This document shows positions 9,001-12,000 of a DNA stretch of 19,507 nucleotides, piece after piece. The DNA is from an uncultured Nitrospiraceae bacterium (GTDB lineage: Bacteria > Nitrospirota > Thermodesulfovibrionia > Thermodesulfovibrionales > Dissulfurispiraceae), in NCBI GenBank assembly GCA_947085205.1, contig CAMTVO010000003.1, forward strand, positions 1 through 19,507. Direction: 5' to 3'. The position numbers were made by a program. How positions within the stretch are numbered: the stretch's first letter is position 1; each line of letters opens with the position of its first letter.

Positions 9001-12000
9001 GATGCGGATATGGAGAAAGCTGATAAAGTCAGGAGCAGTCCAGTTCAAAGGCGCTGTGTATATTCTCCCTTACTGCGAAGAAAACCACGAGTTTTTCATG
9101 TGGCTTGCATCAGAGGTCGCATTCATGAAAGGAGAAAGTGCATTTATCAGGACAGATGCTATTGAGACTATGGATGATAATGAAATTATTGCAGTCTTTA
9201 ACCGTCAGAGGGAAAGGGACTACGGCAATGTGCAAAAACATATCGATGAACTCGAAATAAAAACAAACAGTATACAAAAAGGTGCGGGCATACAGAACAT
9301 AAAAAAACTCTTAGAGCATCTCGCCAAATATTCAAAAGAATTCGAGGAGGTAAAAAAAATCGATTTCTTTTCATCAAAGGCAGGCGTAATCTTGCATAAA
9401 AAGATAGAATCCCTGAAGGCTGCTTTAAAAAACATATCCGGAGCCAAGACAGACAAACAGCCTCCCTCAATAATCCCCAGACGCATTGAAGACTATCATA
9501 GCCGGATGTGGGCCACAAGAAAAAATCCATTTGTTGACAGGATGGCCTCTGCATGGCTCATAAAAAAGCTTATCGACAGCAAGGCATCATTCAAGTTTAT
9601 TGATGAGCGAGACTTAAATGACCTCGGCAAAGAAATCGTCACCTTTGATATAAGAAGCGGAGAGTTCACGCATATCGGCGATATGTGCACATTCGAGGTC
9701 TTGGTTAAGTCATTCGGCATTAAAGACAGGGCGGTTAAAAAGATCGCATGGATTGTCCACGATATCGATATAAAAGACGACAAATACACAGCCCCTGAAG
9801 CAAAAGGCATCGAGGAAATTTTGACAGGTATAAGAAAAGCAGCAAAAGGAGACGCAGACGCTCTCGAAAGAGGGATGGCTGTATTTGAGATGCTTTATGC
9901 ATCTAAAACTTAAAAAATAAGGAGGACAAAATTATGCCGCCGGTAGAAAAACATTTAAAGACAAGTCTTGAGAAGACAGGAAAGGAGTACAGGGAGGTTC
10001 ACGAATGGATTGACGGCGACCCTGCCAAAAAAGCCGAAAGGCATGATATCACAAAAATCCATGAATATGGTCAGATGTTTAAGGAGAAATACGGAGACGA
10101 AGCTCTTCAGGAATATTTGCAGCATATTCATGATGATGTTAAGTCAAAATTCAGTCATGTTCAGGAGGATCTGGAAAAAGCCGTTGCAGAAACTCTTACA
10201 TATTTTGGGGTGAAGTAATATAATGGTTATTCGGAAATGGAAATAGAGCTTTTATACACAGGGGATTGTGCCCATTATAAGCTCGCTCGACGGCTCATTC
10301 ACGACACTCTCAAATCGCTCAAGCTCAATTGTCCATTGAAAAAGGTGGAGATCAAGACAGTAGAAGATGCTAAAACCCATTTGTTCGGCGGCTCTCCGAC
10401 GGTACGAATTGACGGCGAAGATGTTGAGCCAGAAACCGTAAGAGCTGCCGGACTGACCTGAAGGATATATGCGAATGGCACAGGGATGCCTGATTCAGAT
10501 GTATTGCGATGCAAGATTGCACAGGCATCTGGGCTGAGAACCATACTGTTTGTCTGCACAGGGAATTCCATTCGTTCACAGATGGCGGAGGCGCTGGTGA
10601 ATAATTTTTTGGGTCAAAGGTGGATTGCCTTTTCCGCAGGGATTATACCCACCGAACTTAACCCAAATGTCCTAAAAGTTATGAAAGAGATAGGCATTGA
10701 CATGAAAGGTCAAAGGGCAAAACATATCAATATATTTCATAACTGTTCTTTTACTAAGGTGATAACCTTGTGCTCTGATGCCGACCGGATGTGTCTTACC
10801 TATCCTGTCACCGATGAACAAGACCGCATAATATTTCATGATCCAATATCGTCTTATGGTCTTGGCTTTGGATCAATTACCTTATTCCGAACATTGCGAG
10901 ATGAAATTAAGCAAAAACTGTTGAAATATTTCAAAGGGGAATAGTATGGCAGCATTGTTTAAAAAATTATCAAAAAAAGACAGGTGCGTCCCTCTCATGC
11001 ACATTCAAGGTGGGGCTTCAAAAAAGTATAAAAACTTTAAACACTTCCTGAATCATAATTACACAGCGCTCAACCGCATGGCAGAAATGGAACAGATGTA
11101 TTATAGTGGCAAGCCATTTAGCCTTATCACTGCACAAATAAAATATCAGGAACTTTCAGAGGCTGTGATGGGGCTTGTTTATGCCCTTGAGAGTATGTCA
11201 CATGGCAAGTTTTCCAAGCTCATCAATATAATCAATGATATAGAGTCTGATATATTTGACTACTTTAGCCCGAAATTCTCTTTTCTCACAACAGACATTG
11301 TGGTTCCCCTCGAAAATATCATGCCTGAAATGAGGAGCATTGCCGGAGCAAAAGCTGCAAACCTCGCTGCCATAAAGAATGTTCTTGGTCTTCCCGTCCC
11401 GCATGGTTTTGTTGTTACCGCATATGCCTTCGATAGGTTCATCAAAGAGACAGGTCTTTCTAAACCGATAAAGAAGGAATTGGCAAGGATACCCTATCTT
11501 GATTCAGTCCATACAATGAGGAGGATGAGCGAAAAACTGAGAGGGATGGTCTTACAGGCAACCGTGCCTCCTTCTATCGCCGATGAAATAATAGGGGCAT
11601 ATGAATCCCTCGAAGAGAAGACTCAGAAGAACGTAAGAATCTCCATACGGAGCAGCGCCATCGGAGAGGATACAGAAGCGAGCTTTGCAGGTCAGTACGT
11701 TTCGGTCCTGAATGTCACGAAAGAGAACATACTCGAGGCTTACAAGACTGTGCTTGCGAGCAAATACTCCACTCGGGCGTTAACCTATATGTTCCAATAC
11801 GGACTCCATGACAGGGAGACGCCGATGGCCGCGATAGGACTCGCCATGGTTGACGCCGTATCAAGCGGGGTTGTCTATACATTAAACCCTTCGCAGGACA
11901 ACAGCCAGGCTGTAAAGATCAGCTCTGTATGGGGGCTTGGGGAGTATCTTGTCAGCGGGAATATATCTCCAGATGCATTTCTCGTTGACAGAGATGAAGA

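Follow-up and report, generated by a model that had tools for sequence, protein, structure and literature searches.

The window, i.e., the whole 19,507-nucleotide stretch of DNA that was analysed, encodes a real and probably selenocysteine (Sec)-containing protein that represents a new fusion of known kinds of domains, in which an N-terminal domain of the DF family precedes a C-terminal domain with the ArsC/LMW-PTP fold. The explanation that is preferred here, with a probability of about 0.45, is that of an ArsC-derived enzyme, probably acting as a phosphatase and as the partner of a kinase encoded next to it, which carries the DF domain as an accessory redox or metal-binding module based on Cys or Sec. 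The interest of the fusion lies in this kinase link and in an apparently recent Cys-to-Sec change, and less in arsenate reduction. The features of the locus are the following:

10195..10224, plus strand: promoter-like site CTTACA-18-TATAAT, a lead only, whose end lies 12 nt ahead of the start codon
10237..10527, plus strand: DF-family domain (NF049942), residues 1-97, of thioredoxin fold, with Cys11, Ser-Pro at 53-54 and the probable Sec75
10459..10461, plus strand: in-frame TGA, probable Sec codon (codon 75), in the motif AAGLT-U-RIY
10464..10505, plus strand: SECIS-like hairpin of 15 base pairs with the apical loop CAGGGA, 20 nt past the TGA
10486..10488, plus strand: ATG of Met84, a possible internal restart that would give a 152-aa protein without DF
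10534..10944, plus strand: ArsC/LMW-PTP-fold domain with the P-loop C107-TGNSI-R113, Cys179/Cys186, Asp202-Pro203 and a clade-specific hydrophobic insertion after DP
10946..14137, plus strand: 1063-aa PEP-synthase-like phosphotransferase (the kinase), starting 1 nt past the stop of the fused gene
14150..14701, plus strand: HD/HDIG-domain protein, likely in the same operon, gene order as in G055
14698..15885, plus strand: MFS transporter, likely in the same operon, gene order as in G055

A reading frame with an internal TGA codon

The earlier note on this DNA had described a 235-aa frame joined by a TGA in the motif AAGLT-U-RIY, and translation bears this out: positions 10237-10944 of the plus strand form a single frame of 235 codons in which the TGA at codon 75 is the sole internal stop. 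Its statements that the N-terminal part matches the DF family and that the ArsC part stays below the cut-offs hold as well. In the NCBIfam comparison, residues 3-90 of the read-through protein match the DF model NF049942 with 75.4 bits (cut-off 70; 70.3 on the DNA level), and residues 101-232 are covered by models of thioredoxin-type ArsC at scores under their cut-offs (PRK13530, 102.1 bits for a cut-off of 215; TIGR02691, 98.9 bits for an equivalog cut-off of 174.3), with Pfam LMWPc matching residues 103-227 at 55.8 bits. The promoter-like site upstream agrees with 10 of 12 letters, in a region that has 15 such sites where 14.6 are expected by chance; a TATAAT box is found 5-6 nt ahead of the start in seven of the 12 orthologs examined.

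Decoding of the TGA as Sec, already proposed in the same note and leading to a 235-aa selenoprotein, is likely, an assessment based on the Sec genes of the host, a TGA column shared by the family, diverged variants that have stayed intact and the hairpin downstream. The host genome (G000) encodes SelA (contig C30) and SelB (C28, above cut-off), tRNA-Sec (SelC, on C59) and SelD (on C19), the last of which carries a TGA of its own. In the alignment of fused relatives the TGA column is a conserved Cys, and in all 20 other DF-like TGA loci that were translated the TGA occupies the same column, x-U-R-x-Y/F. Across 401 genomes of the host phylum, NF049942 gave 98 matches in 85 genomes, most of them under the model cut-off, and 83 of these 98 have one TGA.

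A real alternative, because several orthologs (in G407, G411 and G226) begin at the equivalent of Met84, is that the TGA arose from TGC as a nonsense mutation in a domain that can be spared, and that the functional product is the 152-aa protein starting at this methionine. The probability of this alternative is nevertheless low, the lowest given to any reading here. It fits the finding that every other intact fused gene available as DNA (seven with the full DF domain and one cut by a contig end) has Cys though SelA is present in all five tested hosts of Cys-form fusions, and it also fits a pN/pS over codons 2-74 of 0.37, not significantly less than 1 (p 0.09), compared with 0.14 downstream. 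However, the stop would have had to hit precisely the Sec column of the family, and in the nearest Cys ortholog codons 1-84 offer 35 ways of reaching a stop by a single step, of which the change at codon 75 is one. Two other 74-aa fragments, P0126 and P0190 (91% and 86% identical), end at the same codon, their stop position being known from protein fragments and not from DNA, and C-terminal halves matching them exist, with longest contigs of equal length. The three variants, which differ at 7-10 of the 74 residues, share the stop at codon 75 with Cys11 and GSPT intact and with both halves intact. The ratio of N-half to C-half divergence among the TGA variants (~1.8-2.6) is also similar to the 1.6-2.0 of the Cys pairs that are closest to each other, five in number. 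Moreover, a contig from another study has 19 differences over positions 10200-10527, none of them listed at the TGA (one of the four runs compared, X9, spans this codon, X6 yielded nothing, and 11 differences across the runs are missing from the list), and the one that falls in the hairpin keeps the pair, changing G-C to G-U. A clear ribosome-binding site is lacking ahead of Met84, which likewise speaks against a restart there.

The SECIS element, left unanalysed in the earlier note, has a candidate in the 15-pair hairpin, which is modestly above chance. Compared with shuffled sequence its z is -1.05, and among 5000 synonymous recodings 109 equal the hairpin of the window and 974 show SECIS-like geometry. 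Of 18 other Sec DF loci, 14 carry a GG loop between +20 and +22, and the five Cys fused orthologs form 4-8 pairs over the equivalent 48 nt. The upper stem is already present in the closest Cys relative, and the unexceptional hairpin fits a nonsense change too; on its own it is weak evidence for Sec. Rfam returned one match, by chance.

The fusion is commoner than had been thought when only two other fused copies were reported: the protein search recovered ~31 fused Cys homologs of full length, with 44-69% identity, as well as three that are distant. The best relative on genome contigs belongs to a Nitrospirota MAG (68% identity), and of the 56 loci from the scan of genome contigs one is a fused relative. 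A tree was built of 34 fused proteins from protein collections, which cannot show full-length Sec forms; in it the window protein has a Cys protein as its sister (support 100/99) within a clade of 17 rows that is otherwise all Cys. Because the Sec form branches from within the Cys forms, the simplest reading is that Cys75 was recently replaced by Sec in the lineage of the window. Gains of this kind are known, an excerpt of PMC1794560 giving 33 Cys-to-Sec events in 17 families. The window gene and its counterpart in G055 (68% identical) represent a natural Sec/Cys pair for the role of selenium at DF position 75. Two further sets of candidates were rejected. The DNA pattern U/C-R-x-Y-x-NGTG occurs at 11 loci in metagenome contigs, eight of them with a DF match, and all eight have TGC and no LMW-PTP fusion. 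A TGA flagged in the G407 ortholog is the end of the upstream gene and not a Sec codon, and G410 has TAA/TAG there.

The ArsC-like domain and the neighbouring kinase

The C-terminal domain contains the CX5R P-loop C107-TGNSI-R113 with the nucleophilic Cys and the general acid D202. The C179/C186 pair, equivalent to Cys82/Cys89 of ArsC and with the same spacing, is invariant in 39 aligned fusions, and all three C-terminal cysteines are kept in 38 of these 39 and in 18 of 23 orthologs. Among solved structures, its nearest relatives are those of arsenate reductases (37-38% identity, Foldseek E 1.7e-12), behind which true LMW phosphatases rank with a Foldseek E of 4e-7 or weaker; profiles also place ArsC first. 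This three-Cys signature and fold are what would be expected of a true arsenate reductase in which DF serves as a built-in Sec/Cys reductant of the Cys179-Cys186 disulfide and replaces thioredoxin, the earlier note having read the fusion as a Sec-containing built-in reductant of ArsC. Such a model, which we regard as unlikely, can also draw on the absence of any second LMWPc match from G000, on a thioredoxin reductase that comes after the kinase in three genomes, and on the fold of the DF domain and the other DF-ArsC associations that are described below.

The genomic context points elsewhere. Genes for ArsC are usually located alongside arsR and the gene for an arsenite exporter. ArsR or Acr3 accompanies 41 of 58 ordinary ArsC-like loci taken as controls, compared with none of the 26 clade loci, none of seven longer stretches and not the window itself for arsR/acr3, a comparison in which the clade loci are mostly 3.5 kb and the controls up to 12 kb, 24 controls are marine Nitrosopumilus-type archaea and kin are non-independent. 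In G000 (89.7% complete), ArsB was not found, Acr3 had no match above cut-off, and ArsP and ArsM had no match at all. The same genome has one SBF-family transporter without an assigned type. Because the kinase gene lies directly downstream in 22 of the 26 clade members and arsR/acr3 is adjacent in none, the arsenate-reductase role that had been given to this protein is left unsupported by its surroundings, and the scores of the domain under both ArsC cut-offs argue in the same direction. The clade, which is automatically annotated as 'arsenate reductase ArsC', probably has another role.

The gene that follows instead encodes a PEP-synthase-like phosphotransferase, consisting of an ATP-binding PPDK_N domain (residues 132-433), a swivel domain (482-552) whose His517 is conserved in 29 aligned kinase sequences, an unassigned middle domain and a C-terminal lectin-like domain. 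It misses all PEP synthase cut-offs: the match to the PEP synthase model has 347 bits (cut-off 598) and stops at residue 565. A C-terminal PEP/pyruvate domain is absent from the match, the C-terminal part hitting only swivel and levanase lectin domains, and the C-terminal half of the kinase has no atlas match at 0.9. The association between the two genes is close. Of 23 family-level orthologs, 19 are followed by a kinase start at a distance of at most 78 nt, one more having a broken kinase start, and the kinase is also downstream in the three further order-level orthologs (3/3), which gives the 22 of 26 mentioned above. Next to ordinary ArsC-like loci it was found in 0 of 5 and 0 of 53 cases. 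Cys107 is kept in all 16 genes beside an intact kinase compared with four of the seven beside a broken or absent one (p 0.02, with non-independent kin). The kinase does not require an ArsC-like partner, since among its 30 best loci 14 are without such a gene upstream. The kinase family is present in 58 of 68 genomes of the host family, and the clade of fused or ArsC-like proteins suggests a partner for this widespread orphan family. In G178, the gene row consists of a phosphonate-binding protein, a histidine kinase, a response regulator, the fused gene and the kinase.

Under the phosphatase-partner explanation, the TGA would be read through as Sec to produce the full 235-aa protein, the C-terminal domain of which, derived from a three-cysteine thioredoxin-type ArsC, would have been co-opted to work with the adjacent phosphotransferase. 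A phosphatase built on Cys107, Arg113 and Asp202 would then most likely strip the phosphoryl group set by the kinase from a putative substrate, and Cys179/Cys186 may represent a retained relay that resets Cys107 when it is oxidised or arsenylated. That such activities can coexist is suggested by an excerpt of PMC8949286, according to which many thioredoxin-coupled ArsCs also show phosphatase activity. The DF domain would be an accessory module, dispensable in many relatives, in which Cys11/Sec75 may either feed this relay or bind soft metals or metalloids, thereby possibly guarding or gating the enzyme. This explanation is challenged by the ArsC structures being the closest ones and by the retention of all three cysteines, a set for which a plain phosphatase has no need. 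It is also challenged by a separate fusion of DF with ordinary ArsC (P0109, P0111 and P0112) and by the presence of DF in an ars operon of G172. A bolder proposal, which we hold to be rather improbable, is that the locus represents a new Nitrospirota kinase-phosphatase module, in which the PEP-synthase-like enzyme would be opposed by an ArsC-derived phosphatase gated by DF as a soft-metal or redox sensor, and in which Sec at the DF position would be independent of the stand-alone DF-like Sec of mer/ars operons.

The DF domain and its possible contribution

The structure model of the DF domain has a pLDDT of 90, and its best match in VIA-align is a thioredoxin (Z 9.2, rmsd 2.8, 81 aligned residues), the top rows being thioredoxins as well; Foldseek with the DF domain gave no match at E 0.001. 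In 14 aligned DF domains, C11, S53, P54, G60, C/U75, R76 and P85 are invariant. C11 occupies the first CxxC position of the thioredoxin fold, and a CxxC or CxxU active-site motif is absent from the domain, which reads C11-A-H-Y and has its second Cys/Sec at position 75. In an excerpt of PMC2714181, thioredoxin is described as attacking Cys89 of ArsC, its second CxxC cysteine then resolving the mixed disulfide; C11 and U75 would have to do so without a CxxC. The thioredoxin fold with its invariant C11 and C/U75 and the three ArsC cysteines are, beside the likely Sec read-through, the part of the built-in reductant idea that stands, whereas the part that does not is the necessity of DF. The domain is missing except for its last helix in 10 of 26 orthologs of the window gene, and among the 39 aligned fusions both DF cysteines are kept in only 27, one or both being lost in the other 12. 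Because it has no CxxC, is absent from these 10 orthologs and has less conserved cysteines than the three of the C-terminal domain, DF is unsupported as a needed reductant. In the model of the fused protein, the last DF helix leads directly to the beginning of the first strand, the far end of which bears the P-loop, and DF is therefore predicted to be placed away from the active site of the ArsC domain.

The DF family itself stems from deep-Sep, where it appears as 'hypothetical protein DF' from one organism and, as far as excerpts of the sources tell, has no TGA homologs (PMC12013277; table in PMC13188914). The literature searched, a scope outside which Haft and Tolstoy 2025 and the supplements of the papers lie, holds no account of a DF-ArsC fusion. 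The published DF-like selenoproteins come from one genome; in the host phylum such proteins are frequent and linked to mercury and arsenic genes. In this phylum a Sec form, DF-U, occurs joined to a MerB-like lyase; it comes after MerA in two genomes, and at locus L119 of G172 DF-U is part of an ars operon (permease, DUF2703, DF-U, ArsR, Acr3). Among 41 long DF representatives that were scanned, 16 are fused to MerT (nine), MerC (five, three of them above cut-off), HMA alone (one) or a MerB HTH (one), and none to LMWPc. These 41 come from the 43 with at least 151 aa among the best 150 DF rows, the other two having matched only the tail, and one row (P0129) biased the profile behind the scan to membrane tails. 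A DF homolog is present in 58 plasmid records; among the six that were read, five have it next to mer or metal-efflux genes; plasmids contained no DF-ArsC fusion matching P0111. Because DF more often accompanies mercury and metal genes (merT, merC, merB, merA), whether fused or adjacent, the ArsC fusion does not provide the earliest pointer to its function, and the 'first functional assignment' of the family expected in the earlier note finds no support.

These associations bear on two of the alternatives. The second, independent DF-ArsC fusion and the ars operon at L119 favour the arsenate reductase with a built-in reductant. The mer fusions, the MerB-like lyase, the position after MerA and the plasmid neighbours favour a model in which the C-terminal domain acts on arsenate while DF serves as a metal or metalloid chaperone that takes As(III) or shields the cysteines from Hg, As or Cd. 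This chaperone model is also improbable, slightly more so than the reductant one: it shares the absence of an arsR/acr3 context, metal binding by DF is a prediction, and the profile that produced the representatives is the one biased by P0129.

Relation to known systems

The closest known enzymes are the ArsC proteins of pI258 and B. subtilis (TIGR02691, PRK13530; PDB 1LJL, 1JL3), with which the window domain has in common the LMW-PTP fold, the CX5R motif, the spacing of the Cys82/Cys89 pair and an equivalent of Asp105. The window differs from them in its scores under the cut-offs, in an Ile/Val at the position of Cys15 and in the hydrophobic insertion after DP, and its clade differs in having an N-terminal DF domain or the last helix of it and a kinase neighbour instead of arsR/acr3. 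With the DF family (NF049942) the window shares a score above cut-off, the TGA at the conserved C/U-R-x-Y column and a hairpin downstream, whereas its fusion to an LMW-PTP domain and a Sec nested among Cys orthologs set it apart.

For the pairing of a phosphotransferase with a phosphatase, a comparable arrangement is the 'nitrate cluster' DVU0251-DVU0245 of Desulfovibrio, in which, according to an excerpt of PMC4001038, the PPDK-like DVU0246 adjoins the phosphatase DVU0245, a periplasmic protein, a histidine kinase and a response regulator. Here a PPDK-like gene (PEP/pyruvate-binding and mobile domains) lies by a cysteine-type phosphatase and two-component genes, in the window by a putative phosphatase, and the gene row of G178 forms a similar string. 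DVU0245, however, is described there as a PTP/dual-specificity phosphatase of 1110 bp and thus differs in kind from the ArsC-like protein, the excerpt mentions no selenoprotein, and the likeness of DVU0246 to the window kinase comes from its description only. Finally, the known Sec-containing arsenate reductases (TIGR00014, UxxS; NF041106, UxxC) resemble the window protein in that Sec occurs in a protein named arsenate reductase. These enzymes belong to pfam03960/cd03032 and carry Sec within their UxxS or UxxC motif, while in the window the probable Sec resides in a separate domain that is fused to an enzyme of the LMW-PTP fold.

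N-terminal domains and promoter-like sites of the orthologs

In three orthologs of the fused gene (L131, L134 and L136, from the genomes G223, G390 and G163, respectively), the N-terminal domain is thioredoxin-like but diverged, and contains an extra CPxC motif. Seven of 12 orthologs (L122-L125, L131, L134 and L136) carry a TATAAT box 5-6 nt 5' of the start codon, a spacing that suggests that these genes produce leaderless transcripts.

Genes around the kinase and its paralog

Besides the fused gene and the PEP-synthase-like kinase located 3' of it, the window and the host genome contain the following genes:

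Window 1609-5263: carboxyltransferase-biotin carrier and biotin carboxylase, a pair that we take from its motifs to be pyruvate-carboxylase-like; a LysR regulator is divergent from it
Window 8630-10218, 5' of the fused gene: ChrB-like gene and 94-aa gene of unknown kind
G000:C38:13318-20491 (region, host genome): second kinase paralog, 845 aa

In G055, G338 and G354, the kinase likewise has a ChrB-like gene nearby, either alone or together with the 94-aa gene; in G055, ChrA is present as well. In three genomes with DF-less orthologs (L166-L168), a thioredoxin reductase gene lies immediately 3' of the kinase. Judging from ORF starts, the 845-aa paralog is convergent with a string encoding a TauE-like permease, USP, a histidine kinase and a response regulator.

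DF-like selenoprotein candidates in the host phylum

A diverged DF-like subgroup with a TGA in the same column as that of the fused gene is common across the phylum (L004, L013, L015-L018, L020, L022-L032, L115 and L119). Among 401 genomes of this phylum, 83 of the 98 matches to the DF model, most of them below the cut-off, contain one TGA; the family's source paper reports that no TGA homologs of DF were found (PMC12013277). The subgroup features a conserved hairpin (GAGTC-loop-GRCTC) and is frequently set in mer or ars operons. DF domains, including TGA-containing forms read as Sec (DF-U), also occur in other arrangements:

L011 (G020:C181): DF (Cys form), membrane helix and TlpA-like domain with UxxC (TTWUPAC) in one fusion
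L111:4785-6380 (G069): MbdU-like double selenoprotein gene, immediately followed by DF-U
L108:864-1850, L109:5912-6898 and L031: DF-U and a MerB-like organomercurial lyase in a single protein of about 328 aa

The last of these is a candidate Sec-containing MerB fusion.
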